Assembly: GCA_963555995.3 (NCBI GenBank)
Contig: OY821641.1
Location: forward strand, 960,001-1,024,000
Source: Vicinamibacteria bacterium
GTDB lineage: Bacteria > Acidobacteriota > Vicinamibacteria > Marinacidobacterales > Marinacidobacteraceae
Length of the DNA: 64,000 nt
Direction of reading: 5' to 3'
Part shown: one piece after another, positions 15,594 through 39,520 of the stretch
Position numbering within the stretch: position 1 is the first letter of the stretch
Layout: each line of letters begins with the position of its first letter
The notes under the pieces: model-generated
Database searches by the model: none
What the model saw: only the letters and a program-made list of their open reading frames with translations
Told to the model about the DNA's origin: nothing
Program-made: the position numbers and the translations under genes

Positions 15594-16315
15594 TCCTCGA
15601 ACTGCTCTCCCGCGAGGGGCGGGAGGCGGCCCGCATCCGGCGCGCCGCCAAGACGCTCACCGAGCGCTACGCGCAGCCCGAGCCGCGCATGGACGCCGCC
15701 GAGCGGCTGGTGCGCATCGGAACCCCCGAAGCGATCTACCAGCTCGCCCGGCGTTTCACCATCACCTCCGGGAACCTGGAACAGGATGACAAGGAGAAGC
15801 GCTGGGTCCGCGACCTCCTGGTCGAATTGGAAGGCCGCGCCTCCGAACCCGTGCGGCGCTACCTGAAGGGTCACGACGAGATCACCTGGGCGATGGACGC
15901 CCTCTCGAAGCTCCTGCCGGCGGAAGAGCTGGCAACGTTCCTCTTCCAGGTGCTCCAGGACGGGGATCCGGTGGCCATCCGGGGGTCCAAGGCGGTCCAG
16001 ATCCTCGACTTCCTCGCCGGGCTCGAAACGGAGGGGATCGCCGCCGGGGTCGCGCGCTGCCTCACGAGCAGCGACGACACGGTGCGGATCGCCGCGGTGG
16101 CCGCGCTCCGCGGCTATGGAGACCAGGAAACCCGGGAAGCGCTTCTCGAGGCCTTCGTCTCGGACGAAGAGGACTCCGTCCGGGTGCGGATCGCGATCGC
16201 GGAACTCTTCGCCGACCTGGAGTGGGAAATCCGCGGTCATCGCCCGGGCGTGGAACGCGTGCTTCCCGACGGCTTCCGGGTCAGCTCCCGCGGCCGGATC
16301 GTCCGGGCCGGGTAG
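15590..16315 (+). CDS. HEAT-repeat protein
   Basis: RMDAAERL, DDTVRIAAVAAL, DSVRVRIAIAE; GTGA overlap with the upstream gene. Confidence 0.7.
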   Translation: MILELLSREGREAARIRRAAKTLTERYAQPEPRMDAAERLVRIGTPEAIYQLARRFTITSGNLEQDDKEKRWVRDLLVELEGRASEPVRRYLKGHDEITWAMDALSKLLPAEELATFLFQVLQDGDPVAIRGSKAVQILDFLAGLETEGIAAGVARCLTSSDDTVRIAAVAALRGYGDQETREALLEAFVSDEEDSVRVRIAIAELFADLEWEIRGHRPGVERVLPDGFRVSSRGRIVRAG

Positions 16316-16376
16316 TCGTCCGGTGGACAAAAGGAGTCACCCCGGAAGCCGCCCATCCACCCCGAGGCCGGAATCT

Positions 16377-17531
16377 GTGGCATCCTCAGCGCACCAGCCT
16401 CCGGAGCAACTTCGAATCGTGACGCGCGCGCCCCGCACCGACGCCGAGGCGGGACGGCGTGGGCGCGCGGGCGCCGGGAGCGCCACATCGCTCCTGTTCC
16501 GGGGCGATGTGCTCGACGCCTACCCGACGTGGCCCGCGCCCTCGACGATCGTTTCCGACGGCGCGTACGGCGTTGGGGGATTTCCGGGCGATCCGCGGAC
16601 CGCGGAGGGGCTCGAAGCCTGGTACGCGCCCCATGTCGCCGCCTGGGAGCGGTACGCAACGCCCTCGACGACCCTCTGGTTCTGGAACACCGAGTTGGGC
16701 TGGGCGCGGGTGCATCCGCTGTTGGAACGGCACGGCTTCGAATACGTGCAGACCGTCGTGTGGGACAAGGGCGTCGCCCACATCGCCGGCAACGTGAACG
16801 GCGGCACGATCCGGCGATTTCCGGTGGTTACGGAAGTCTGCGTGTTCTATCGGCGACGCCCCGAGTTCCGTACCGTGGAGGGGCCCATGGCGCCTCGGGA
16901 GTGGCTCCGCTACGAATGGCGCCGCGCCGGCCTGCGGTTCGCCCTGGCGAACGAGGCCTGTGGGGTCCGGAACGCCGCGACCCGTAAGTACCTGGCTTCG
17001 GACTGGCTCTGGTATTGGCCCCCTCCGGCGATGATGGAGCGGCTCGTGGGGTATGCCAATGAGCACGGCCAGCCGGCAGGTGCGCCGTATTTCTCGCTGG
17101 ACGGCGAGAGACCGGTGACCGCTCGCGAATGGGCATCCCTCCGGGATCGCTGGCACCACATCCACGGCGTTACCAACGTCTGGTCCGCACCTCCGTTGCA
17201 CGGCGGCGAGCGGTACAAGGGCAATGGCGTCCGGTCGGCGCCCCGCGTACATCGTCCCGGCGCGGGCGCGGCTGTCCATCTCAACCAGAAGCCGCTGGAG
17301 TTCATGCGCCGGATCCTGAACGCTTCGACGGACCCGGGCGACGTGGTGTGGGAGCCCTTCGGCGGCCTCTGCAGCGCATCGGTTGCCGCCATCGAACTGG
17401 GCCGGCGTCCATTCGCCGCGGAGGCCGTGGACCGGTTCGCCGAGCTGGCCGCCGACCGCCTGCGCCACGCTCTCGCAACCGTCGAACAGAGCCTGTTTCC
17501 GCCGTCCGCCGCCGGGACGGACCCAACATGA
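16377..17531 (+). CDS. Site-specific amino-DNA methyltransferase, beta class (start uncertain, 16377 or 16419)
   Basis: Motif IV-like IVSDGAYG, WDKG, TNVW, HLNQKPL, motif I-like GDVVWEPFGGLCS. Confidence 0.87.
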   Translation: MASSAHQPPEQLRIVTRAPRTDAEAGRRGRAGAGSATSLLFRGDVLDAYPTWPAPSTIVSDGAYGVGGFPGDPRTAEGLEAWYAPHVAAWERYATPSTTLWFWNTELGWARVHPLLERHGFEYVQTVVWDKGVAHIAGNVNGGTIRRFPVVTEVCVFYRRRPEFRTVEGPMAPREWLRYEWRRAGLRFALANEACGVRNAATRKYLASDWLWYWPPPAMMERLVGYANEHGQPAGAPYFSLDGERPVTAREWASLRDRWHHIHGVTNVWSAPPLHGGERYKGNGVRSAPRVHRPGAGAAVHLNQKPLEFMRRILNASTDPGDVVWEPFGGLCSASVAAIELGRRPFAAEAVDRFAELAADRLRHALATVEQSLFPPSAAGTDPT

Positions 17532-18439
17532 ACGTACCCGCCGCCCCCGCCCCCCCGCTGCTGGATGCCGACGATCCCCGGACCCGGTTGGCGGACCGGG
17601 TGAGGGAGGCCCTGAGGGCGTTGCCCGCCTACTTCGACTCCAAGACCAACATCGAGGGTTTGGGAGTCACCGACCTCTTCTCCCTGAACGCCCTGCTGGC
17701 GTCCACGATCGAGGTCCAAGTCGTGGAGACGCTGAATCGGATGCGTTCGGTGTGGGATCCCGGAAACGAATGGCCGCTCTATTCGTTCGAGCGGCAGGCA
17801 CAGACGTTTCCTGATGTCCTGCTCCGCCGGCGCGCGGGTGATGGCAGTTCCGCGGTGGCGCTCGGGATCGAGCTGAAGGGCTGGTACCTGCTTGCGAAAG
17901 AGGGGGTGCCGAGTTTCCGCTACACGGTGACGCCGGGGGCGTGTGCCGAGTGGGACCTGCTGGCCGTGGTGCCGTGGCACCTGGAGAACGTGCTGGCGGG
18001 CGCCCCGCGGGTGGGAATTCCGGGTGTCTGGTCGGCCAGACACGCGGCCGAATACCGGAACTGGTGGTGGCGCCACCAGCGCAGCGCCCAGTCGGACTCG
18101 ACCATCGAGATGCCGCCCGACGCCCGGCCGCATGACCGGCGCGACCACACCGCCGACCGTCCGGTGTCGGACAAGGGCGGCAACTTCGGACGAATTGCCC
18201 GAATCGGCATCATGCGGGACTGGATCGACCGGCAACAGGTGGCTCCGATTGCGGGGATTCCGGCGCGGAACTGGGTCGAGTTTCTCCGGCGGCACGCAGA
18301 CCAGAGCGATCCCCAACTGGTTTTTGACCAACTGGTCAAGGAGGTCGAAGCGGCAAGGGATTCGGCGGGAACGCCCGCTCTCGCACAAGCGATGGACGCG
18401 CTCCGGCACTTGATCCAGGCGCTTCCCCGAAACGACTGA
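17528..18439 (+). CDS. Putative PD-(D/E)xK restriction endonuclease
   Basis: ATGA overlap with the MTase stop; QTFPDVLL...GIELKGW catalytic-like motif. Confidence 0.65.
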   Translation: MNVPAAPAPPLLDADDPRTRLADRVREALRALPAYFDSKTNIEGLGVTDLFSLNALLASTIEVQVVETLNRMRSVWDPGNEWPLYSFERQAQTFPDVLLRRRAGDGSSAVALGIELKGWYLLAKEGVPSFRYTVTPGACAEWDLLAVVPWHLENVLAGAPRVGIPGVWSARHAAEYRNWWWRHQRSAQSDSTIEMPPDARPHDRRDHTADRPVSDKGGNFGRIARIGIMRDWIDRQQVAPIAGIPARNWVEFLRRHADQSDPQLVFDQLVKEVEAARDSAGTPALAQAMDALRHLIQALPRND

Positions 18440-23751: not shown

Positions 23752-23960
23752 GCGTCTCGCCCGTCCTCCGGACGGGTGATTCCGCAGGAGCGCCGGTCTT
23801 CAGGCCGGCATCGTCCCCCGCGGGGGGACGAAACTCCGATGCTTCGTTCGCCGTATGGCAGGGCGTCACCGGAGACGGCGCTCCGCCATGCGGCAGGGTG
23901 ATCACGGGAGTTTCGCCCGTCCGCCGGACGGGCGATGCTGCTCCGAAGAACGGCGCTCCC
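23752..23960. repeat. Cluster of REP-like units forming an inverted (REPIN-like) pair
   Basis: + copy 23787 GGAGCGCCGGTCTTCAGGCCGGCA-TCGTCCCCC..GGGGGACGAAACTCC; degenerate - copy ending 23960; CCCGTCC-NCC-GGACGGG hairpin occurs twice. Confidence 0.75.
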
Positions 23961-24361
23961 GGCGGTCTCCCTCGGTGGCTCGCACCATTTCCGGAACACC
24001 ACGCCAGTCCACAGTGACAGTTTTTGGGATATGCCGTGAACCACAAACGTAACGGCCAACGGACTTCCGACGCCAGTCTTTGACCAGGACCGCGACAACT
24101 CCCGATCGAATGGCTGTCGTAGCGCCACGGACGCTGCCGACCATCGTTCGTGACTGATTGTCCTTACATTCATTACAGCCTGTTTTCGTGGACAGTCAGA
24201 GTATTGGGACTGGTTCGGACGGGCGCCCCGCCGTGAAACAAAGCCAAGTACGTCGTACGAAACAGGGAATCACCCTTTGGTTCGCATGCGGAGTTCGGTT
24301 ACCGCCTGCGATATGTGACACATGAAACTGACACGTATTACGTTGAGATGAGGAATGGACG

Positions 24362-26059
24362 ATGAATCTCACGGTTTCCGAGTTGGCTCTTGCCGTAGGC
24401 AAACAGGAAAACTATGTGCGTCAACACATACATCGGCGTCATCTCACGGTTCGCCGACAGGGACGAACCGTCTGGGTTCCTCTTCACGAGGCCGTGAAGT
24501 GGGCGGCAACCCGGGGACTTTCGTTCGTGCCGCCCAAACGGATCGCCCTGACGTTACTCGACCAGGGGGAAAGGGTCGGGCGGCTCACGGTCCTCGCCTG
24601 GCATCCCGAAAGCGGTCTGGCGCGGAACCTGTTCACGTTTATGCGTCATCGAAAACGCGAGGCCGTGGGACCGTGGTCCGGCAAACCGGATGCAACGTGG
24701 ACCCTGGAGGAGCTCGATGGTGATCTGAGTCTGCTGTCTTTCAACGCTTCGTACGAGGAATGCCAGCAGCACGTCGAAGGCATCCTTCAGTCGGGAGTAC
24801 TTGAGGCGCACGAACTCGAGATTCACTACATCCTCGAAGACAATCCGAGGAACCACTGGGCCTACCGGGACTACCGGCGCCGGTCGGAGAGTTCGATACG
24901 GAGCCCGTTCTCGACGCACAGCGCCGCGATCACCGAGTACTGGAGTTTCGAAGACGAACCTCGCAAGCAGTGGTTGTCGGTGTCGGACCCCCTCGCCGGG
25001 CGATTGCGCGTGGCGCTTCGGCGTCTCGGCTTTCCGCTCGACAGATGTCCGGAACGAGTCGGCAACCTGCTGGTCGCCGGCGCCGAGGACGCGATCACGT
25101 GTCGCCTCACCGCGCATCACGACCGGACGCTTCGACTTCATGTCGAAGCCAGGGGGCTTCTCCCCCAGACCTATCGCGCGACCGTATGGGCAAGTCACAG
25201 CGGGGACGAGGTGCTTCGAAGGGAGGTGCCGGTCATTCCGGGGCAGACGACGATCGAACTCGTTTCCGAGGTGGACCGCGCCGGTTTCGCTGTCTGCCGC
25301 GATTTCGACGGGCAGTACGTGGATCTGGTGGAGAACCTGCCCGGGATGGAGCCGTCCCCTGCGGGGCGGCGGGGCGACCCGCCGCTCCAGCAGGTCCGGG
25401 ATCCGGTGGCGCGCCTTCCGCAGCGGGTCCGGCCGTCTGGTTCGGACGCTGCCGTTTCGGGGCGTCCCGGGCCGACCGTACGGCTCGACCGGGGGATCCG
25501 GCAGCAGTGGCTGCACCGCGTTGCGCATCAGAGGGAGGCCGGGGCTCGCCGCGACGCCAACCTGGTGCGCTTCGGCCCCGGCCGGTTCGCGGACGCGGCG
25601 CGGCATTTCCTCTACCTCGTTTCGCGCGACTCCGACCACCCGGGGCCGACCTACCTGGCCGATCCGTGTCTCGTCGGACACACGCTGGCGGACGAGGTGA
25701 CCCGGCTCTTCGGGGAGATGTGCCAGGCGATGCGGCGCGGGCCGCTGCGGATCCTGTGCGCGGAGCGCCAACCGAACGACGCTCCGACGTGGTGGGCCCG
25801 CTACCTGCGGCAGACCGACGCCGACGTGACCGTGCGGACCTTCGTGAATCGCTCCGATGAGCGGGGGTGCTTTCACGACCGATACCTGATCACTCCCGCG
25901 CGCGAAGTCCTGATCACGAATTCGTTCAACGGCTGGAATCGTTTCGGCGTGACCTTCGTGAGTCTTCCCTACGGGCTCTACCGCGCGGAAGCGGAGAAGC
26001 TGTGGGCTCTGGATCCGGACACCCCCGCCTCGGACGTCCTCGTCCGCGAGATTTCGTGA
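24362..26059 (+). CDS. Hypothetical protein: N-terminal excisionase/MerR-like HTH plus VPA1262-like body with C-terminal PLD-like (HDR) domain
   Basis: LTVSELALAVGKQENYVRQHI..V.R.GR.VWV; LGFPLDRCPERVGNLLV; YLADP...FHDRYLI...ITNSFN; GAGGA RBS. Confidence 0.6.
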   Translation: MNLTVSELALAVGKQENYVRQHIHRRHLTVRRQGRTVWVPLHEAVKWAATRGLSFVPPKRIALTLLDQGERVGRLTVLAWHPESGLARNLFTFMRHRKREAVGPWSGKPDATWTLEELDGDLSLLSFNASYEECQQHVEGILQSGVLEAHELEIHYILEDNPRNHWAYRDYRRRSESSIRSPFSTHSAAITEYWSFEDEPRKQWLSVSDPLAGRLRVALRRLGFPLDRCPERVGNLLVAGAEDAITCRLTAHHDRTLRLHVEARGLLPQTYRATVWASHSGDEVLRREVPVIPGQTTIELVSEVDRAGFAVCRDFDGQYVDLVENLPGMEPSPAGRRGDPPLQQVRDPVARLPQRVRPSGSDAAVSGRPGPTVRLDRGIRQQWLHRVAHQREAGARRDANLVRFGPGRFADAARHFLYLVSRDSDHPGPTYLADPCLVGHTLADEVTRLFGEMCQAMRRGPLRILCAERQPNDAPTWWARYLRQTDADVTVRTFVNRSDERGCFHDRYLITPAREVLITNSFNGWNRFGVTFVSLPYGLYRAEAEKLWALDPDTPASDVLVREIS

Positions 26060-28200
26060 TGCCGGTCAAACCGGGCGGCGCTTCCTCCCTGTCAGCGGAA
26101 GCCCGCGAGACGGTCTGGCGGATCTTCGGGGCCGGAGCCCGGCCGGGGGGCAGGGGCTCGGTATTCGACAACATCGAACCCATGATCCGCGAGCATGTGC
26201 CGCCGGCCGACCGGGACCGCGCCATCGTGACGATCGGCGACTGGTTCGAATCGGGCGCCCACACCCGGTGGCTGAAACCGGACCACGCCGAGTTGGCCGC
26301 CGATCTGGTGATCCAGGGGGTCGGTCCGCGCCGCTCCGAAGATGCCGTTTGGGCGATCGGATCGATCGGAGTCGAACTGTCGGCCGCCATGATCAGGCAG
26401 CGCTGGGCCGGGGAAGAGATCCGAACCCTCGTGGACGCGGCCGTGAACGTGCTGAACCGGACCGAGGCGCACGTGCGGCCGGAGGATCGCTTGCCCGGGT
26501 TGGAGAACGAGGGGGCGGGCAGCTTCCCGGGAGCCGTATCCCGGGACGGGATCGTGGCCGCGTTTGCGCGGCTCGAGGAAGAGAGTCTGGAACTCGTGAA
26601 CCAGGGACTGCACCCGACGGTAGCCAATCTGATTGACCTGGCGGTCGAGCTCTTCCCGGAACAGGTTCCCGCGCTTGTCTCCCGGCTGGCGGCGCCGGCC
26701 ATGCAGGCCAGGGCGGCGCGACGCGCGGTGACCCGGACGCCTCCCGGCGATCCGGGGGCGATCGTCGGATGGATCACCGAACATGCCGCCGATACGGCCG
26801 TTGCGCTCGCCATCGTGCATGTCCTGGGCGCGGCGAGGAAACTGGACGACACCCGGGCGCCGCGAAGCGACCCTTCGCGGGCGCCCGCGGGGAAGGACAG
26901 TCCCGGGCAGGCGCCGGAACATCCCGCGGATGCCGCCGGAAACCTGGTTCTTCGACTCCTGGAGCGTCTGGCGAGCCTGGGCTCGCCGGATTGCCTGCGG
27001 TGGATCGGTGAGGTGCTGAACCAGGCTCCGCGGGCCCTGTCGGCGCCGGGCGCCGGAGAGAAGCCGGGGCTCCTGGCCCGCGTCGAGGACGAGTGCACGC
27101 GACTGGCGGTGAGACGCTTCCGCGAGTCGGGATCCGCGCCTTTGCTCTCGCACTTCCAGGTGGGGCTCCTGCCCGGTCGGGGGAGGCACTGGGTGCGCCA
27201 CCAGGCGGCGATTGCCCGGGCGATGCGCGAATCGGATCCGCGACGGGCCGAGGAGCTCGCGCGGGCGACCCTTGCCGAACACCGGCGACAGTTGGCGGAA
27301 CAGCCGGATGGCCACTACCTGGCCCCCGACTGGGACCGCTGGAGCGATCGGGAATGGCTTGAGGGCCTGGGAACGGCGCTCGCCCTGGGACAGAGGGATC
27401 TGGATCTCCGGGCCTGGGTCGCCAACGAATGCCGGGACCTCCCCCTGAGCGTCTGGGACGCCGAGGAGGATCCCGATGGATTCGCGACGGCGGAGCAGAT
27501 TGCGCAGCACTGGTTCCTGGTCGCGCTGCTCGCGATTCCGCAGCGGCGGGAGTTCGGCCGAGCTCTCGGGCCGCCCGTGGTGCGCGCCCTCGCCGAAGCG
27601 GTCTGGGCTCACTGCAGGTTCTGCCGGCCGTATCTCCCGACCCATCCGGAAGCGTCGGTCGCCGCCGAGTTGGCGGCCCGCTACGCAATGCAGAGCGGGC
27701 GGGACAACGACCAGTGGCTGCTCGACCAGGCGCGCGGCGAAGGCGTGGGTCCCGGAGCTCTCCGCGTCCTGCTGGAGGAGCGGCGATCCCGCCGCCATCC
27801 GCCGGTCGAAGACCTCTCGGACCCTGACGACCTGATCGTGGCGGAACTGGTGCGGATCGCGCTGGACCGATTCGACGATGGCGGCCAGTTCGACCTGGAG
27901 AGCCTTCGCGACTGGGGAAGGCTCTGGCTCCTGGTCGGCGCGGTGGACCCGGCGGAGAGGACGGCCATGGCCATCGTCAGTTTCCCCCTGCGCGCCGCGG
28001 ATCGGCACTCGCGGATCCTGGCGCTCAAGCTGCTCGGGCTGGTCGTTCGCCACCGCAAACCGCGTCCCGGCGTGGCCGAGTACGTGGTACCGCTCTACAA
28101 CCAGCTCTGGCCGGTGTTCGCCGTCACCCCGAACCAGGAAAGGGAAGACCGCGAGGAAATCGAGAAGGCTTTCCTGGGTTCGGACCTCATCGCCGGGTAG
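26059..28200 (+). CDS. Large predicted alpha-helical hypothetical protein (713 aa)
   Basis: ATG 26059 overlaps the upstream TGA (TGATG); Leu/Ala/Trp/Glu/Arg-rich helical pattern with no recognisable catalytic motif. Confidence 0.8.
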   Translation: MPVKPGGASSLSAEARETVWRIFGAGARPGGRGSVFDNIEPMIREHVPPADRDRAIVTIGDWFESGAHTRWLKPDHAELAADLVIQGVGPRRSEDAVWAIGSIGVELSAAMIRQRWAGEEIRTLVDAAVNVLNRTEAHVRPEDRLPGLENEGAGSFPGAVSRDGIVAAFARLEEESLELVNQGLHPTVANLIDLAVELFPEQVPALVSRLAAPAMQARAARRAVTRTPPGDPGAIVGWITEHAADTAVALAIVHVLGAARKLDDTRAPRSDPSRAPAGKDSPGQAPEHPADAAGNLVLRLLERLASLGSPDCLRWIGEVLNQAPRALSAPGAGEKPGLLARVEDECTRLAVRRFRESGSAPLLSHFQVGLLPGRGRHWVRHQAAIARAMRESDPRRAEELARATLAEHRRQLAEQPDGHYLAPDWDRWSDREWLEGLGTALALGQRDLDLRAWVANECRDLPLSVWDAEEDPDGFATAEQIAQHWFLVALLAIPQRREFGRALGPPVVRALAEAVWAHCRFCRPYLPTHPEASVAAELAARYAMQSGRDNDQWLLDQARGEGVGPGALRVLLEERRSRRHPPVEDLSDPDDLIVAELVRIALDRFDDGGQFDLESLRDWGRLWLLVGAVDPAERTAMAIVSFPLRAADRHSRILALKLLGLVVRHRKPRPGVAEYVVPLYNQLWPVFAVTPNQEREDREEIEKAFLGSDLIAG

Positions 28201-28291: not shown

Positions 28292-28906
28292 ATGACGGAG
28301 CCCGTGGACGAAGCGACCACCCACCGGGAACGGATGCGGACGCTCCAGGCGGAGGTCCGGGAGAAGCGCGCGGCGGCGAGCGACCCGGACCGCGGGCTGG
28401 TGCTGGTCCACACCGGGGACGGGAAGGGGAAGTCCAGCTCCGCCTTCGGGGTCATCGCGCGGTCGCTCGGCTGGGGCCGGAAGGTCGGGGTGGTGCAGTT
28501 CATCAAGGGTAACTGGAAGACCGGCGAGCGGCAGTTCTTCGAGCGCTTTCCGGACCAGGTGGTCTGGCGCACTATGGGCGAAGGGTTCACCTGGGACACT
28601 CAGGACCGCGCCCGGGACATCGAAGTGGCCGCCGGCGCCCTCGCCGTCGCCCGGGAGATGCTGGCGTCCGGAGATTTCGACCTGGTCGTCCTCGACGAGA
28701 TCAACGTCGTGATGAGCTTCGACTACCTGGAAACGGATGCGGTCCTCAAGGCGCTCGGAGCTCGCGCGCCCAGGACCAGCGTGATCCTGACCGGCCGCGG
28801 CGTGCCTCCCGAGGTCACGGAATACGCCGACCTGGTCACCGAGATGCGCGAGGTGAAACACCCCTTCACCACCGGCATCAAGGCCCAGCCCGGCATTGAC
28901 TACTGA
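28292..28906 (+). CDS. cobO: Cob(I)yrinic acid a,c-diamide adenosyltransferase
   Basis: GLVLVHTGDGKGKSSSAFG, VVQFIKG, MGEGFTW, LVVLDEIN, LTGR, ADLVTEMREVKHPF..GIKAQPGIDY. Confidence 0.96.
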   Translation: MTEPVDEATTHRERMRTLQAEVREKRAAASDPDRGLVLVHTGDGKGKSSSAFGVIARSLGWGRKVGVVQFIKGNWKTGERQFFERFPDQVVWRTMGEGFTWDTQDRARDIEVAAGALAVAREMLASGDFDLVVLDEINVVMSFDYLETDAVLKALGARAPRTSVILTGRGVPPEVTEYADLVTEMREVKHPFTTGIKAQPGIDY

Positions 28907-28920
28907 GATCCGGCCGACTG

Positions 28921-28973
28921 GGACCGCCGGTCTCCAGACCGGCATCGTCCCCCGTCAGGGGGACGAAACTCCC
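28921..28973 (+). repeat. REP-like two-hairpin repeat
   Basis: GGACCGCCGGTCTCCAGACCGGCA-TCGTCCCC..GGGGACGAAACTCC, same subtype as the 23787 copy. Confidence 0.82.
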
Positions 28974-29083
28974 GTCGCTGATCCGCGGTATGGCGCAACG
29001 TCGGGCGGCGTGGCGCGACATCACACGGAAGGCCGTTACGCCGTGCGGCGTACTGACTCACGCCACCTACTCGGTCCTCAATC

Positions 29084-30034
29084 CTAGGTCAAGCCTTCCG
29101 TACCCATTGCCGTCACATGCCGCGCAGTGTCGTCGGCGACAACAACTCGCATCGCTCTGTTTCCCCAGGTCACTTTCCCAGTCTTTCCGAAGAGATCACC
29201 CTCGGCTGACTTCCCAAGGCCGTAGCCGTCGCGAAAGTGGATCGAAACTACCCAGAGGTGACCAAACCGAGCCGGATACCAAAGTGGTCCGCCCCCGAGC
29301 CTCATTTCACCCCCCCTCTCAGCAAGGGACTCCACCCACTCGTAGAACGACGTGTCCCGACCTCTCGGAAGTAGCACGAGACGGCTTCCCATCTTGACTG
29401 CCCAACACGGCCTCTGTTCACAGTTCATCAGAATTCCGTTTACGTCCCCGAATTCAGGTGGAGCGTCACGAGAAAAATGGCGGATTATCTCCTGACTCGG
29501 TTCCACAATCTGCCTGCGGACATGTTTGATGGCCTCTCCCTTGGCGTACAGGTATCCATGTTTTCCCAGCAAGGAAAATACAGAAAGATATGCCGCCTTC
29601 AACCACGAAACACTTGTGTAGTGTGGCGCGGCGACTCTCCCCGTCAAAGTGATGGTCCTTGCGGAGCGAAGTGACCTGCTAAAGACCTCCTGTGGTACAC
29701 GTAGTTTTGACAGATGAGAGCTGATATTGCCTCGTTCGTCTACCGATATGCGCGCGGTGTGAATCGGAATACCTTGGATTTCCAGTTGTACCTTTTGTTC
29801 GCGTTGAGACTCTACGGTTGCCATTTCCATTCGGCTGGCGCTGTTGTTGCACTTGCTACAGGTGAGGCACATCGCGAACCCACCAGCGTTGAATGCCTTG
29901 GGAGGAACGTGTTCGAGCGTTACTCCTTGGCCCTTCTGAACAGCCGACTCTGTGAAACCATTCAGGCAGATGGGGCACCGATCATTGCCTGAAGCGAACA
30001 GGTCAAGCCGTATTTTTCGTGACGTTCGACTCAT
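29084..30034 (-). CDS. Zinc-binding HNH endonuclease-domain protein
   Basis: CPIC...TLEHVPP...CLTCSKCNN; visibly lower GC than the flanks. Confidence 0.78.
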   Translation of the reverse strand: MSRTSRKIRLDLFASGNDRCPICLNGFTESAVQKGQGVTLEHVPPKAFNAGGFAMCLTCSKCNNSASRMEMATVESQREQKVQLEIQGIPIHTARISVDERGNISSHLSKLRVPQEVFSRSLRSARTITLTGRVAAPHYTSVSWLKAAYLSVFSLLGKHGYLYAKGEAIKHVRRQIVEPSQEIIRHFSRDAPPEFGDVNGILMNCEQRPCWAVKMGSRLVLLPRGRDTSFYEWVESLAERGGEMRLGGGPLWYPARFGHLWVVSIHFRDGYGLGKSAEGDLFGKTGKVTWGNRAMRVVVADDTARHVTAMGTEGLT

Positions 30035-30136
30035 CAGAAAATTCAGTTCCAGGACGGAGCGAAGCGGATACTACAGACCGACCCTAATCTGGACCGGGCG
30101 AAAGATGAAGTAGGCAGATGCCGCCCCGCCGAACGC

Positions 30137-32959
30137 TCAACTTCCGGAGACGCGAAGGGACCGGCGGCGTTTGCGTTTCTTCTTGGTAGCGGCGGCGGTC
30201 AGCGGGGCGCGGAGACGTTCGTACAGGGTGAAGAGATGTTCGACGCGCTCGCGCTCGGAGCGGAACGGGCGGGGGCGGTAGAGGCGGTCCACGGCGCGGT
30301 CGAGCGCTCGGTGGGCGCGGCGCAGTTCGACGGGCATCAACTCTGGATCGTAGAGGTCCGCGAGGGTCGCGCCGGGGTGTACGGCGCGGGCATCAAGGAC
30401 GGCTTGGGCGAGCGAGTCGAGGGGAGCCAGGTCCGCGTCCTTCGGGGGCAGTGGGAAAGCGTTGTAGACGAGACCGATTGAGTACCGATAGCGGCTCTCC
30501 AGTCGTCCGCCGATGTGACGCAGCCAAGCCATGTGCATGGTGGACGTCAGCAGGGCGAAGGTTGCCTTCTCGGCACCGAGCAATATCTTCAGGGCATTGC
30601 TGGGAACGACCGGGGGCTCCATCCAAGCCATCGGCGCATACTCGCGCCGCTCAGAGCTTGTTTCCGGGACTACGAGGAACGGTGCTGACGGTATGACGTT
30701 GACGTGATACAGCGTTGGGGTTTCAGCCAGATCCCGGGTTGACGCGGCCCGGCTTGCCAACCGGACAGCCTTGACAGCAGCGATCCGTCGGCGGACTTCC
30801 GGGAGCTGTCGCAGCGTCTGTGGCGGTGCATCGTGGAGCGCCAGAATCCAGCGATCCCCACCCTGCAGGAACTCCCGGCTTCCAACGTAGGGCCGGAGGA
30901 ACTGTGCAGCAGCGGGCTCGCTTGCGAGTAGGTCAACCCTCTCCTCCGCATTGAAGATGTAGTTCCCACCGTCAATCGGTTTGGACCCAATGACCAGCTT
31001 TGGGAGACCGTTGATCGGCCGGCTCTCCTCCCGCACCACCAGGTGCGGATCGGCCAGCCCACCCGCATCGAACAGGTACGGCGACAGCACCGCGTGGGCG
31101 CTCTCGTGCGGATCGCCCTTCACGTCGTCGTACGAAAACAGCCGCCGCGCCGCCGGAACCCCCTCCCGGTCGTCCAGCCCGATGATGACGACATGCACGT
31201 GCGCCATCCCCCGCGCGTCCGAGCCCCACGCGAACGTCCGGTGCGCGAAGGCGATCTCCAGCCCCGAGCGCCCGAACAGGATCGGCCACAACTGCGCCAC
31301 CTGCTCGCCCTGCGTGATCGAGTTCGTCGCCACGAAGCCGATCCGCGCCCGCCCGCCCGGCGGGCCGCTCTTCCCGACGTACTCCCCTGCCCGGAGGAAC
31401 CACGCCGTCACGTAGTCGAGCGTCCCCCCGGTCCCGCCGAGCGCCGCGATCCGCCGGACCTGCGCCCGCTGTTCCGGTGACTGGAACTTCGCGCCCCCGA
31501 ACGGCGGGTTCCCGAACACGAAGGAACAGTCCTCCGCCGGCAGCAGATCCTCCCAGTCCATCTCCAGCGCGTCCCCGCAGTGGATGTGCGGGGAGCGCTT
31601 GAGCGGAATGCGGGCGTAGGACTGGCCGAACTCGAGGCTGAGCTCGTTGTTCATCAGGTGGTCCATCATCCACAGCGCCACCTCGGCGATCCGGGCCGGG
31701 AACTCCCCGATCTCGATCCCGTAGAACCGGTCCACGTCGAGCCGGGACAGCGAACTCACGTCGAACTGGAGGACCTGCCGCTCCTCGCTCCCCAGCAGTT
31801 CGCGGAGCACTTCGAGTTCCAGCCGCCGCAGCTCGCGGTAGGCGATCACCAGGAAGTTGCCGCAGCCGCACGCCGGATCGAAGAACGTGAGCCGGCCGAG
31901 CTTCTCCTGGAACTCGCGCAGCCGCGGGAGCCGGCCGCGACGGAGCGCCTTGATCCGGGCGAACTCCCCCCACAGATCGTCGAGGAAGAGCGGCTCGATG
32001 ACCTTCAGGATGTTCCGCTCGGTGGTGTAGTGCGCGCCCTGCTGGCGGCGCTGCTCCGGGTCCATCACCGACTGGAAGAGCGAGCCGAAGATCGCCGGGG
32101 AGATGCTCGACCAGTTGAACCGGCAGGCCGCGAGCAGGTGCTCCCGCATCGCAGAGTTGAAGTCGGGAATCGAGATCCGCCCGGCGAAGAGATCGCCATT
32201 CACGTAAGGGAACCGGGCGAGATCCTCGTCGAGCGTGGCGGAACGGGCCTCCTCCGGCGTGTCGAGGACCTCGAAGAGGCGCACCAGGAGAGGGCCGAGG
32301 TCCATCCCGTCCGGTCGGGTCCGCGTCTCCACGAAGTCGAGCAGGATGTCGCGCGGCTCGAAGACCCCGGTGTCGTCGGCGAACAGGCAGAACACGATCC
32401 GCACCAGGAAGCGTTCGAGGTCGTGGTCCGGATACCCGGCGTCCCGCAGCGAGTCGTGGAGCCGGCCGACCAGCTCGGCGGCCTCGATGTTCGCCGGGTC
32501 CTGGTCCCGGAACGTCCGGCTCTCGACCCCGAGGATGAACCCGAACTTCTCCGCGTGGTCCGGCAACTCGTCGAGCCGGAAGGCGGCCACCTCCCGCTGG
32601 AGGAGGTCGTGGAGCTCGAAGTGCCGGAAGTCGCTCACCAGGATGTAGCGCGGCCGGTCGCGCTCGGAGAGCGCGTCGAAGTAGCTCCCGGCCTGCTCGT
32701 AGGCCGCCCCCAGGTCGCGGCCCGCGCTCTTCTGCTCGACGATCAGGACGCCCGGCCAGAAGAGGTCAATGAACCCCCTCGTGTCGTCCAGCTTCGCCAC
32801 CCGCTCCTCGTAGCGGGCCACGGACTCCCGGCGCACTCCGAAGATGCGGAAGAAGTCGTTGTAGAAGCTCTGCGTCTCGCCCTTCTCGTAACCGGCGTCC
32901 GCCCACTTCCGGGCGAAGGACGCCGCGCGGGCGCGGATCTCGTTCCAGGAGAGGCGCAT
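30137..32959 (-). CDS. MmeI-like type IIL restriction-modification enzyme (endonuclease-methyltransferase-TRD fusion)
   Basis: FIDLFWPGVLIVEQKS (nuclease), GAHYT, FFDPACGCGNFL, GNPPF, FVATNSITQGEQ, SSERREY, GGRLESRYRYS, LADLYDP. Confidence 0.93.
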   Translation of the reverse strand: MRLSWNEIRARAASFARKWADAGYEKGETQSFYNDFFRIFGVRRESVARYEERVAKLDDTRGFIDLFWPGVLIVEQKSAGRDLGAAYEQAGSYFDALSERDRPRYILVSDFRHFELHDLLQREVAAFRLDELPDHAEKFGFILGVESRTFRDQDPANIEAAELVGRLHDSLRDAGYPDHDLERFLVRIVFCLFADDTGVFEPRDILLDFVETRTRPDGMDLGPLLVRLFEVLDTPEEARSATLDEDLARFPYVNGDLFAGRISIPDFNSAMREHLLAACRFNWSSISPAIFGSLFQSVMDPEQRRQQGAHYTTERNILKVIEPLFLDDLWGEFARIKALRRGRLPRLREFQEKLGRLTFFDPACGCGNFLVIAYRELRRLELEVLRELLGSEERQVLQFDVSSLSRLDVDRFYGIEIGEFPARIAEVALWMMDHLMNNELSLEFGQSYARIPLKRSPHIHCGDALEMDWEDLLPAEDCSFVFGNPPFGGAKFQSPEQRAQVRRIAALGGTGGTLDYVTAWFLRAGEYVGKSGPPGGRARIGFVATNSITQGEQVAQLWPILFGRSGLEIAFAHRTFAWGSDARGMAHVHVVIIGLDDREGVPAARRLFSYDDVKGDPHESAHAVLSPYLFDAGGLADPHLVVREESRPINGLPKLVIGSKPIDGGNYIFNAEERVDLLASEPAAAQFLRPYVGSREFLQGGDRWILALHDAPPQTLRQLPEVRRRIAAVKAVRLASRAASTRDLAETPTLYHVNVIPSAPFLVVPETSSERREYAPMAWMEPPVVPSNALKILLGAEKATFALLTSTMHMAWLRHIGGRLESRYRYSIGLVYNAFPLPPKDADLAPLDSLAQAVLDARAVHPGATLADLYDPELMPVELRRAHRALDRAVDRLYRPRPFRSERERVEHLFTLYERLRAPLTAAATKKKRKRRRSLRVSGS

Positions 32960-33224
32960 GGCGGCGGCGTATTGTGGCAGAGGACCCGACGGGCCGCTCC
33001 GCGCTGGAGACAATCGGAACGCACGGCGGCAACTAGCGCTCGACGTTCCCCTGAGTTACTCCCACCACGAGCCTCATAGTGACTCCACTCCAGTGACGGA
33101 TCCCATCTACGATGACCGGAAGGACTCCACTCAGGATCTCTGCCGTAGAGAAGGCTCCGACTCCCAGAGGATTGCATCATCTGGGCTCTTGGCCCAGAAA
33201 ACAAAAACAGGTGGACCACATTGT

Positions 33225-33384
33225 TGGGTAGTTTTCCGTTCCGGACAACGACAATTCGGGGCGGTAGAACCCCTCGAAGGAGGCCGACATGTCCAGACGA
33301 CTCCGGCGGAACCATTCGCCGGCATTCAAGGCGAAGGTAGCGATGGCGGCGGCCCGAGCCTTATGTGGACGCGGAACGAGGTGA
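33225..33384 (+). mobile_element. Truncated left end of an IS3-family insertion sequence
   Basis: AGGAGG RBS then ATG 33289 MSRRLRRNHSPAFKAKVAMAA, the typical IS3 OrfA start; similarity ends after about 22 codons, stop at 33384; left boundary approximate. Confidence 0.78.
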
Positions 33385-33513
33385 TGGGAGTATCCACAAG
33401 AAGCCGATCCGCACGGGGCAAGGGCGCGGAAAAGCATGACACGGCATGTGATCCGAGACGGGGTTGGTAGTGACTTACACTGGGGGGCTCTTGGACCCAC
33501 TAAGCTAACTACC

Positions 33514-34998
33514 ATGAAGCCGACAACCGAGGCCATTACAAGACCGGGGACCTTCGTAATCAAGCCGATAGGGGCGATTCCGGGGACCCTAACGATCGAC
33601 GGAAGAAACACCGTCCTGTATCTGTGGTCACATCAGAATTTCGAGGTAGATCCCGAGCTCAATAGCACAATCGCTGGAATCCTCGACGACGGACGACCCG
33701 TGTCGCTGATTCGAACCGTACTCACAAGTCATGAGACGAACTTCACAAAGCACGGGCTTTCCCAGAGGATTCGACTATTCCCAAACTATGTGGTCATCGG
33801 TTCGGATTCCGTTACTGATGCCTCGGCCTCCATATCGTCAGTGTCCTTTGAAGTAACAGATGCTCCAACACTGTTCTCTGACCATGAGGCGTTCGGGATC
33901 GTGCATACGAGTAAGGATCTTCTGACAGAGATAGTCAAGGAGAATAAGGGCGATATTTCGTATGAAATAGGAGATTTGCCACTCGTTGCATACTACACGG
34001 GGAAGAGAGAACTATTTCATGCAGAATGCGCAAACTTTGGAGTATCCGGATGGCACGGCATCGGATGGGTAGCTTCTGTCGCAGGAGGCGTGAGGATCAA
34101 CAGCACTCCTCACATAGGGGTCACATTCAAGGATCCGGTTCGTGTCTCGGAAATGACGAAATCTGTAAACGTAGTGGTCCAATTTCTGGAGGCGATGGTC
34201 GGTAGCGTACAGAATGTGGGCGAGATGCATGTGACTGGTCCAATCGGAGGCGAGGACCATGTCGTCGAGTTGCATGACAATACACGTATCCGACATGAGA
34301 TTACTCGTGATGTGCGAGGCAGAATCCCATTCGATGATCTCATAAAACCCGTTCAGCAGCGGGGGGACTTCGAGAGCGTATTGACGCAATGGATGAGTCG
34401 AGACGCGAGTTGGAGCGATGCCCGTTGGCGAGTCTTGATGGGATGGAGACCACCGATACGCTATGGCCCGGATCGTTTGATCAGGGCAGCCAACGCCTTC
34501 GATCTTGTTCCCACGGCGGGCGTTGATGAGCGGCGAGAGTTGCCAAGCGCGATTGCGATCGTGGTCCAAGAGACGAGAGCTAAGTTCCGCGCATTGGATC
34601 CCTCTTGGGAGAGGACCCAGGTACTTAACGCCTTAGGGAGACTGAAGCATCTGTCGCTGAAGAACAAGGTCGCGCGGAGAGCAGAAATAGTGAATGGTTT
34701 GATTGGTGACAATCTCACAGATCTTGTAACGGTCTCAAACAGGGCAATTGACCTGCGAAATGTATACGTTCACGGCCCGTCTGGGCGCCCGAGTGACGAA
34801 GTACTCGAGCAATTCGTTCCGTTCCTGACAAACACCCTTGAGTTCATATTTGTTGTGTCGGATCTTGTCGAGTGCGGCTGGTCGTTCCGTGACTGGTATT
34901 TCGGGAGAAGACTGCGTGGGCACCCGTTTGGCCTCTACATTCGAGACTATGCGTATTGGCAGAGGCAGCTTGAAGCCGCAGTCAGCACTTCGCGATAA
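33514..34998 (+). CDS. ApeA-like protein (ApeA N-terminal domain + HEPN RNase)
   Basis: PGTLT..., GILDDGRPVSL beta-rich N-terminus; C-terminal SLKNK...LRNVYVHG (Rx4H); low GC. Confidence 0.8.
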   Translation: MKPTTEAITRPGTFVIKPIGAIPGTLTIDGRNTVLYLWSHQNFEVDPELNSTIAGILDDGRPVSLIRTVLTSHETNFTKHGLSQRIRLFPNYVVIGSDSVTDASASISSVSFEVTDAPTLFSDHEAFGIVHTSKDLLTEIVKENKGDISYEIGDLPLVAYYTGKRELFHAECANFGVSGWHGIGWVASVAGGVRINSTPHIGVTFKDPVRVSEMTKSVNVVVQFLEAMVGSVQNVGEMHVTGPIGGEDHVVELHDNTRIRHEITRDVRGRIPFDDLIKPVQQRGDFESVLTQWMSRDASWSDARWRVLMGWRPPIRYGPDRLIRAANAFDLVPTAGVDERRELPSAIAIVVQETRAKFRALDPSWERTQVLNALGRLKHLSLKNKVARRAEIVNGLIGDNLTDLVTVSNRAIDLRNVYVHGPSGRPSDEVLEQFVPFLTNTLEFIFVVSDLVECGWSFRDWYFGRRLRGHPFGLYIRDYAYWQRQLEAAVSTSR

Positions 34999-37882: not shown

Positions 37883-37939
37883 GGCTCGGTTTCCGAGCTT
37901 CGCCTGCCGCTCGGCAGGCGGTAGGTCATGAAACGGCTG

Positions 37940-38260
37940 GGAGCGCCGGCTTCAGCCGGCACCGCGGGCCGAAGGCCCGCGGATGTCCTGCCGCCGTTCG
38001 GGGTGATGGACCGAGAGCCGAACGCCATTGCGCGGCGCGCTTCGTCCAGTCCGCTGCGCTCCGCGCAGCGGGTGCCGGCTGAAGCCGGCGCTCCAGGCCG
38101 GCGCGCCACGCGGGGGGAGTGGAGCTACGTGACTTCGCCCGCCGTTGGCGGGCGGTGCCGGCTGAAGCCGGCGCTCCAAGCTGGCGCGCCACGCGGGGGA
38201 GTGGCGATACGCGATCCGCCCGCCTTCGGCGGGCTGTGCCGGTCTGAAGACCGGCGCTCC
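37940..38260. repeat. Cluster of four REP-like units (one +, three -) between convergent genes
   Basis: GGAGCGCCGGCTTCAGCCGGCA at 37940 (+); reverse copies 38073-38094, 38156-38177, 38237-38260 with 83-bp period. Confidence 0.9.
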
Positions 38261-38266
38261 CGGCTG

Positions 38267-39520
38267 TTACGCGACGATGAGGGGACGGAGGGCCTTGAGG
38301 CCGGCGAGGGCGCGCTCGACGTGTTCGGCGGTGTTGTAGAGGTGGGGGGAGAGGCGGAAACCGCCGGAGGTGGAGCCGGCGATGCCGTGCTCGTCGTACA
38401 TCCGGGAGAAGACCTCGCGGCGGGATTCGGGGGGGACCTCGACGATGACCACGCCGGCGGAGAGGGCGTCTTCCATGGGTGTGACGAGCGGGATTCCGTG
38501 CTCCTGGAGGCCCTGCTTGAGGCGGCGGGCGAGGTCCATCATCCGTTCTTCCACCCGGTCGGGGCCGATCTCGCCGTGGAACTCGGCGGTGGTGCCCATG
38601 GCGGCGAGGCAGGCGTCGTCGCGCTGGCCCATGGACTCGAACTTCCGGGCGCCGCTCGGGTCGGGGTCGGCGTCGCCGCCCCAGCCGGGGGCGACTTCCG
38701 AGGGCCAGAGCCCGGGGATGCTCTCGCTGCGCACCACGAGGACTCCGCATTCCTTGGGGCCGCAGAACCACTTGTGGGAGCTGCTGGTGAAGGTGTCGGC
38801 GCCGATCGCCGGGACGTCCACCGCGAGGCCGCCGAAGCTCTGCGCGCCGTCCACGTGGACATGGATGCCCCGCTCGTGGGCGGCGTCGGCGATCCGGCGC
38901 ACCGGAAGGTGGATTCCGGAGACGTTCGAGACGTGGGTGATCGCCACCACCCTGGTGTTCGCGCCGAGGGCCTCGACGAAGGGGGCGGCCAGGTCTTCCG
39001 CTCCCGCCGGCGCCTGCGGAACGGACACCCGGCGGACCGTGAAACCGTAGCGGGCGGCGCGGACGTCCCAGGCCACGTTGTTCGTCGGATGGTTCTGGTC
39101 CCAGAGCAGGACCTCGTCGCCCTCTCCGAGCACCAGGCCGGCGTTCACGATGTTGTTCGCCTCGCTGGTGTTGCGGACCAGCGCCAGCTCGTCGGCCGTC
39201 ACCCCGAGCTGCGCCGCGACCTTCTCCCGCGCCGACTCCCGCAGGTCCGAGAACTTCCCCCGGTTCTGGAAGGAGCAGTCGTGATCAATGTCGCGGGTCA
39301 ACTCGCTCACCCGGTCGGCCACCGACCGCGGGGAGGGACAGAGGTTCGCCGCGTTCATCGGCACCCTGTCCTCTTCGAAGGGGAACTCCCACCGCACCAT
39401 CCGGAACAGCGCCTCGTCGTCGGCGGCAGCGGCCCGGAGGGCCGGGAAGGCGGCCGGAACGGCGGCCGTGGTGCGCAGGAATGCGCGCCGGGATACGGCA
39501 TTCGAGAAGGACTTCGTCAT
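38267..39520 (-). CDS. Tat-exported class V PLP-dependent aminotransferase-fold enzyme
   Basis: SRRAFL Tat motif, RNTSEAN, THVSNVSG, HVDGAQ, SSHKW, RLSPHLYN. Confidence 0.9.
   Translation of the reverse strand: MTKSFSNAVSRRAFLRTTAAVPAAFPALRAAAADDEALFRMVRWEFPFEEDRVPMNAANLCPSPRSVADRVSELTRDIDHDCSFQNRGKFSDLRESAREKVAAQLGVTADELALVRNTSEANNIVNAGLVLGEGDEVLLWDQNHPTNNVAWDVRAARYGFTVRRVSVPQAPAGAEDLAAPFVEALGANTRVVAITHVSNVSGIHLPVRRIADAAHERGIHVHVDGAQSFGGLAVDVPAIGADTFTSSSHKWFCGPKECGVLVVRSESIPGLWPSEVAPGWGGDADPDPSGARKFESMGQRDDACLAAMGTTAEFHGEIGPDRVEERMMDLARRLKQGLQEHGIPLVTPMEDALSAGVVIVEVPPESRREVFSRMYDEHGIAGSTSGGFRLSPHLYNTAEHVERALAGLKALRPLIVA

Follow-up and report, generated by a model that had tools for sequence, protein, structure and literature searches.

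Identification of an overlapping gene pair

The window analyzed here is a stretch of 64,000 nucleotides (nt) from a Vicinamibacteria bacterium of the family Marinacidobacteraceae (assembly GCA_963555995.3, contig OY821641.1, positions 960,001 to 1,024,000), and positions are counted from its first letter. A sequence-only reading had pointed to two long open reading frames in this window, here called gene 1 and gene 2, as a candidate anti-phage system. On profile comparison of the proteins, we found that the pair is a distant two-gene relative of Juno (VPA1262), an anti-phage family.

As presented in Table 1, the two genes lie as first described: they are joined by a TGATG stop/start overlap at 26057-26061, and the translation of gene 1 contains LDRCPERVGNLLV, YLADP, FHDRYLI and ITNSFN. 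Each gene is single-copy in the window genome, and assembled contigs of two public runs span both of them without insertions or deletions. We retrieved 127 relatives of gene 1 from a search of 50%-identity representatives and 196 homologues of gene 2 among 8000 candidates scored. Since full-length homologues of both genes number in the hundreds, and since the ratio of nonsynonymous to synonymous substitution rates (dN/dS) is 0.14 for gene 1 and 0.23 for gene 2 over 14 copies from the genus of the window genome (hereafter the genus; flanking genes, 0.10-0.19), we consider both genes to be real.

Scans with Pfam, NCBIfam, PHROG and PADLOC gave nothing above cut-off for either protein, in agreement with the expected lack of family assignment and of a PADLOC match. 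The only weak library match was to the mad1 helix-turn-helix (HTH) model, at residues 1-43 of gene 1 (E 0.025). Across family members, PADLOC-DB 2.0 (a 2023 library) returned no system gene set; the mad1 HTH model matched 16 of 46 members, with one weak match each to NsnC and CARF-HEPN. The Atlas gave leads for gene 1 at 0.83 only (one cluster, 10% of its members having PLDc_2) and none for gene 2.

Table 1. Coordinates of the gene pair, its domains and operator-like elements, and neighbouring genes in the window.
Feature	Position	Strand	Description
Distal promoter/operator-like element	24137..24178	+	-35 hexamer and tandem palindromic boxes; -35 decayed in the window copy
Proximal second copy of operator-like boxes	24315..24356	+	TGACA/TTAC repeats, decayed; just before the ribosome-binding site
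Gene 1	24362..26059	+	565 aa; HTH 1-50, alpha/beta domain 70-235, Ig-like sandwich 242-331, decayed segment 329-372, PLD-fold domain 397-565
Xis/BldC-type winged HTH	24362..24511	+	Pukovnik Xis Z 7.2, rmsd 1.4 over 50 aa; BldC Z 7.0
Segment 329-372 of gene 1	25346..25477	+	Strand-like in other lineages; decayed and predicted disordered in the genus
PLD-fold domain	25550..26056	+	D434, H505 (codon 25874-25876), D506, R507, S521
Gene 2	26059..28200	+	713 aa; predicted all-helical solenoid partner, putatively translationally coupled to gene 1
cobO	28292..28906	+	Pfam PF02572; fixed downstream neighbour in the genus, not in the portable pair
MmeI-type restriction enzyme	30137-32959	-	
ApeA-HEPN	33436-34998		
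aa, amino acids; PLD, phospholipase D; rmsd, root-mean-square deviation.

Domain architecture of gene 1

The gene 1 model (predicted local distance difference test, pLDDT, 81.5; predicted template modelling score, pTM, 0.63) comprises four domains. Its N-terminal HTH, described as excisionase-like from the sequence, was modelled as an Xis/BldC-type winged HTH, and 12 of 28 gene-1 family members match TIGR01764. The fold is common to the small winged-HTH regulators BldC, Xis and MAD1; unlike these, gene 1 carries it fused to a putative effector, and the pair has no link to any further MADS component. BldC is reported to form cooperative multimers on repeated sites (PMC5859096), and MADS defence was hardly affected when mad1 was lost (10.1101/2023.03.30.534895).

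The C-terminal domain has the PLD fold that had been sought in the model. Its fold matches extend over 126-146 residues and include FAM83 (Z 13.3), NucT (12.9), Nuc (11.9), Zucchini (10.9) and MITD1 (9.6). The Asp, His, Asp, Arg and Ser residues listed in Table 1 are invariant in 58/58 gene-1 sequences, the Asn is kept in 51/58, and the position of the PLD Lys is Arg in all copies, which gives the variant HDR..[TN/TH]SxN in place of the canonical HxK(x4)D..GSxN motif. His, Asp, Arg, Ser and mostly Asn are retained also in VPA1262 proteins less than 20% identical. Gene 1 shares its fold with Nuc, NucT and Zucchini and with MITD1 and FAM83; it differs from the single-motif PLD nucleases by HDR in place of HxK(x4)D, by its four-domain context and by its partner.

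Segment 329-372 had a pLDDT below 50 and a dN/dS of 0.52, compared to 0.07-0.16 in the rest of gene 1, and its identity to other lineages was 14% as against 43-56% elsewhere in the gene. This segment is decayed in this genus alone. A frameshift behind it was rejected, the residues aligning in frame with the family pattern.

Gene 2 and its association with gene 1

Gene 2 was modelled as an all-helical alpha-solenoid (pLDDT 83, pTM 0.80), in line with the large helical partner anticipated, and fold searches returned generic helical repeats only (best Z 9.0). At 57 of 58 genome loci, gene 2 lies directly 3' of gene 1 (the other locus is cut off by a contig end), and at 54 of these 57 the stop of gene 1 overlaps the start of gene 2 under a first-start rule. 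Among more distant metagenome loci, a gene-2 homologue was present in 8 of 9, with E values fading from 1e-304 to 1e-6; the remaining locus is a fragment that resembles them. The conserved pairing, proposed earlier as a check, was thus observed in both sets. One 1236-aa protein, a singleton, holds gene 1 and gene 2 in a single chain and may be a frameshift product. At one locus (L068:8101-11299), a transposase-like insertion interrupts gene 1, leaving both gene 2 and the operator intact.

Relationship to the VPA1262 (Juno) family

The founding VPA1262 gene sits in a GMT island (10.1101/2023.03.28.534373), and the family was renamed Juno, as an anti-phage family, in an August 2026 bioRxiv preprint (10.64898/2026.08.01.741415). 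There, two single genes were each tested in E. coli, and plaques were reduced more than 100-fold for 4 of 12 coliphages; the mechanism is not stated in the passages of the preprint available to us. The earlier view that no named system is close to the pair does not hold, this family having been named and validated. The likeness to VPA1262, raised in the same reading, was borne out by what follows.

Two NCBIfam models cover the family, NF040699 for full-length VPA1262 (cut-off 325 bits; 1026 positions, with the PLD domain near 400-525) and NF040700 for the N-terminal domain (cut-off 80 bits). NF040700 matched 23 of 28 gene-1 family members, with a best E of 4.4e-12. Using hhalign, the gene-1 family profile aligned with a RefSeq-annotated VPA1262 N-domain protein at 98.4% (E 4e-15, residues 76-540) and with seven further N-domain proteins at 95.9% over 438 columns. 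The homology thus extends over the whole VPA1262 N-terminal domain.

Other scores argue against this kinship. The NF040700 cut-off was not reached (best 40.4 bits of the 13 members scored), and gene 1 itself gave no match. The gene-1 profile aligned weakly (28%, E 6e-4) with the one full-length NF040699 member found (1027 aa, 520 bits), and gene 2 aligned with the C-terminal half of that member at 0.2%. Against the partners of other VPA1262 forms, gene 2 remained below 1% throughout; those partners do not match each other either. The split NF040700 partners were likewise unmatched to the C-terminal half of the full-length member, and the similarity of gene 2 fades to E 1e-6 within its own family. 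With NF040699 itself, neither gene 1 nor gene 2 gave a match and the 325-bit cut-off was not reached; 5 of 28 gene-1 family members matched weakly (best E 0.0013), as did 0/40 gene-2 members and 0/401 genomes of one class. A single chain of about 1026 aa was not the form observed, two genes being present in 57/57 complete genome loci, with the one fused singleton elsewhere. With gene 1 or a distant member as the query, tblastn detected no relative in plasmid records, and none was found in viral contigs.

A split arrangement exists already among other N-domain proteins: six plasmid loci and one genome locus have a downstream partner gene of 450-560 aa, and in two loci the N-domain gene is accompanied by a second PLD-like gene and a partner of 640-680 aa. 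Because split, three-gene and full-length forms were found, the superfamily occurs fused, in two genes or in three. Like Juno, the pair has an island context and a homologous N-terminal module, which has a DP..HDR..SxN PLD domain at its end and is followed by a further 500-700 residues. It differs from Juno, which was tested as one gene, in consisting of two genes with an added HTH and operator, in scoring below both cut-offs, and in gene 2, for which comparison with one full-length member detected no homology in the C-terminal half. The stand-alone NF040700 proteins share with the pair the split and a full-length profile match to gene 1; in their case the match starts after the HTH, the partners form another family, and some have a second PLD-like gene or two downstream genes. 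The pair likely works like Juno. The available parts of the papers naming VPA1262 contain no test of split NF040700 forms. The split form was absent from the literature that we found, and the homologue list of the Juno preprint may include split forms.

Among the three-gene VPA1262 forms (L110:4687-9057 and L112:190-4541), the second gene encodes a small HDRF PLD-like protein, which could supply the other half of an active site. On a Bacillus plasmid (L115:4927-9864), an N-domain protein and two unknown genes of 714 aa and 418 aa are flanked by an AAA ATPase pair on one side and a type I restriction gene on the other. On a Bradyrhizobium plasmid (L090:4965-9473), an IS630 element separates the N-domain gene from its partner.

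Distribution and genomic neighbourhood

The 58 loci all come from metagenome-assembled genomes of about ten phyla (Acidobacteriota, Chloroflexota, Latescibacterota, Gemmatimonadota, Nitrospirota, Nitrospinota, Spirochaetota, Pseudomonadota, Bacteroidota and Binatia), lineages that are typical of marine-sponge microbiomes. A quick gene tree mixes phyla and shows a long branch to the genus clade.

We analyzed the two nearest genes on each side of 45 loci outside the genus (146 of 173 cluster representatives, cut to 560 aa). The control consisted of 40 fixed-grid windows in ten genomes, nine of them from the taxonomic family of the window genome (150 of 156 genes, cut to 400 aa). Neighbours were classed by reading Pfam matches with E values of 1e-8 or lower. 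A defence or toxin-antitoxin gene was present within two genes at 27/45 loci, of which 3 calls are a matter of judgement (DUF4160/DUF2442, SNF2/DUF4391 and RhuM/Fic), compared to 7/40 controls (Fisher p 7e-5). Restriction-modification genes were present at 14/45 versus 3/40 (Fisher p 0.007) and mobile genes at 19/45 versus 2/40 (Fisher p 9e-5), all these figures being inflated by related loci. The enrichment of defence genes around homologues, another of the proposed checks, was therefore observed outside the genus. DUF3800 genes adjoin the pair in three Dehalococcoidia loci (L076, L085 and L086).

An operator-like element upstream of gene 1

The leader at 23960-24361 has 55.5% GC, as against 70.2% for the chromosome, which agrees with the AT-richer leader of about 400 nt reported initially; the whole intergenic gap measures 633 nt. 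Across phyla, the leaders carry TTGACA followed by tandem TGTAAnTTACA-like palindromes. Using a leave-one-out matrix, we found this element in other taxa at 36 of 40 loci with an HTH-bearing gene 1, 43-86 nt before the start, and in 14/14 genus copies. Among the loci whose gene 1 has no HTH, it was found in one of five, weakly (4.7 bits), four of these five loci being one clade and part of the signal being that of a plain promoter.

In the genus, the element lies about 223 nt upstream of gene 1, with a homologous element at -222 to -225 in 13/13 relatives. The genus matrix scored the distal element at 53 bits, the next site in the genome at 17. The proximal copy is the top site of the cross-phylum matrix in the leader (11.8 bits, p 0.016 versus resampled leaders), and its columns are conserved in the genus alignment. 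No further operator site was found in the window genome with the genus matrix. A wider regulon was rejected, as the cross-phylum matrix mostly picks AT-rich DNA and the genus matrix only its own site.

Because a palindromic operator-like element over the promoter tracks with the HTH, self-repression of the pair is likely, in keeping with the self-regulation proposed in the sequence-only reading. The five loci with an HTH-less gene 1 (L070, L075, L077, L079 and L088), which apart from the one weak site lack the operator as well, would be natural unregulated variants. A hint of covariation between HTH and operator was seen in a Dehalococcoidia clade, where QHIRR accompanies GTAC-type boxes; this is one clade, and exceptions exist.

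Fixation of the pair in the genus

The pair was present in 14 of 16 genus genomes and in 0 of 12 genomes of other genera of the family. The region was probably unassembled in the two genomes without the pair, since the AmpG-like neighbour and the cobO orthologue are missing from them too. As far as the contigs reach, all 13 relatives have the order TonB receptor, gene 1, gene 2, cobO; cobO follows the pair in 13/13 orthologous loci and is absent among the nearest neighbours scanned in other taxa. A complete sister-genus genome carries the upstream genes, including the TonB gene, but lacks the pair as well as cobO. Gene 1 and gene 2 gave trees of the same shape, which are for the most part congruent with those of the neighbours, and the dN/dS of gene 2 exceeds that of every neighbour. 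The pair is a single-copy genus-core locus under purifying selection and not island cargo. These results suggest an ancestral insertion that became fixed in the genus and has since been inherited vertically with its active-site motif intact.

The genes beyond cobO, listed at first as HNH, MmeI-like and HEPN genes, were recovered in part. The MmeI-type and ApeA-HEPN genes were confirmed; HNH is a weak call (Pfam HNH_5, E 0.023, below cut-off). All three are absent from 11/11 orthologous loci with sequence beyond cobO. We therefore rejected the local island as evidence for the window copy, which is vertically inherited.

One genus genome, G002, holds a second pair, 40% identical (L028:757-7654), beside an MmeI gene 83% identical to that of the window. 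In another, G006, gene 2 has an in-frame stop and gene 1 is intact, which may be an assembly error. What the window contributes is a pair fixed throughout the genus, with a segment in decay and the operator in two copies. The fixed copies keep their predicted catalytic residues intact and allow a natural comparison, within G002, of a fixed and an island copy for defence genes turning core.

Proposed mechanism and alternative explanations

From the sequence and the models, we consider it on balance probable that the pair is a self-repressed anti-phage system, in which gene 1 would act as a PLD nuclease, cutting nucleic acid as a dimer, and the solenoid would gate this nuclease, likely by holding or triggering it. 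The HTH would bind the boxes over the -35/-10 region and keep expression low, and coupled translation would provide matched amounts of the two proteins. The solenoid would sense a phage protein or be displaced by infection. Single-motif PLD nucleases such as Nuc and Zucchini pair two domains; two PLD domains of gene 1 could pair in the same way, so that His505 would cut nucleic acid and stop the infection or the cell.

Several observations weigh against this interpretation. The canonical HxK(x4)D was present in 0/119 gene-1 homologues. FAM83 is the top fold match and TrmB also matches; FAM83, TrmB and MITD1 are not known to be catalytic. The pair occupies a fixed locus in the genus (14/16 genomes, one site), and near-universal presence at one site is atypical of most defence genes. 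The limits given above on the neighbourhood figures and on the operator signal count here as well, and no sigma-70 consensus promoter was found in the window leader. Finally, the PLD domains of DruE lack the motif and are dispensable for defence (10.64898/2026.05.12.722862).

Three alternatives were weighed, all of which we regard as unlikely. The best placed is addiction of the toxin-antitoxin kind, in which gene 1 would be a toxic, self-repressing PLD-fold enzyme neutralised by gene 2, the pair being kept since its loss is lethal and any anti-phage action being secondary or absent. An overlapping two-gene operon with HTH and operator, integrases, transposases and relaxases nearby (the 19/45 loci above), and the presence of gene 2 with gene 1 wherever sequence allowed would all be compatible with addiction, from which genus-wide retention would also follow. 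Nevertheless, a solenoid of 713 aa is large for an antitoxin, G006 appears to keep gene 1 with an interrupted gene 2 (assembly error permitting), and E. coli was protected when it expressed Juno, the single-chain relative (10.64898/2026.08.01.741415).

Slightly less probable is an anti-phage system with a non-enzymatic PLD fold, serving as a binding or oligomerising module for nucleic acid, nucleotide or lipid phosphate, where the assembled complex would kill. The retention of His, Asp, Arg, Ser and, in 51/58, Asn, even in the distant VPA1262 proteins, is what an active site would show and speaks for an enzyme; Arg for the PLD Lys in all copies, the ranking of FAM83, TrmB and MITD1 with nucleases, and the motif-less, dispensable PLD-like domains of DruE (10.64898/2026.05.12.722862) point the other way.

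The least probable of the three, domestication in the genus of a former defence cassette for a housekeeping task (nucleic-acid processing, stress response, or one linked to the TonB receptor or cobalamin) with no phage sensing, would suit the fixed synteny and largely congruent trees, the long branch, the decay of segment 329-372, the lengthened leader with its second operator-like copy, and the absence of both cobO and the pair after the same TonB gene in the sister genus, but the genome has no second operator site and hence no regulon, cobO is not among the neighbours scanned in other taxa, the complete sister-genus genome does without the pair, and gene 2 evolves faster than any neighbour.

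Beyond the self-repressed anti-phage pair that we favour, we put forward a wider reading tentatively, as possible rather than probable. The pair would be a distinct anti-phage system, combining a non-canonical HDR PLD nuclease, an alpha-solenoid sensor gate and self-repression by a fused HTH, and moving among some ten phyla of uncultured host-associated bacteria. In the genus it would have become a core gene that shed a segment, a defence system being domesticated, and it would offer a two-piece handle on the mechanism of Juno. The split form separates the PLD-fold module, the helical partner and the operator and singles out one invariant histidine, so that sensor, effector and regulator are each testable alone. 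An HDR-type PLD with proven nuclease activity, if true, would widen the chemistry of the superfamily.

Other features of the window

The region after cobO (29084-34998) is a variable cargo slot of lower GC, holding the HNH-like, MmeI-type and ApeA-HEPN genes in the window and filled with other genes in relatives. Upstream, a DNA methyltransferase and a putative type II restriction gene (16116-18439) lie between a HEAT-repeat gene and a symporter; they are absent in the relatives' loci except for a short remnant in L018. A palindromic intergenic repeat, similar to repetitive extragenic palindromic (REP) elements, occurs at 23787-23860, 28921-28994 and 37934-38290. The first two copies were considered as boundaries of an insertion and rejected, as the repeat has hundreds of copies in the genome (about 300-460 blastn matches). 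The joint of these two copies seen in contigs is most simply another copy of the repeat.

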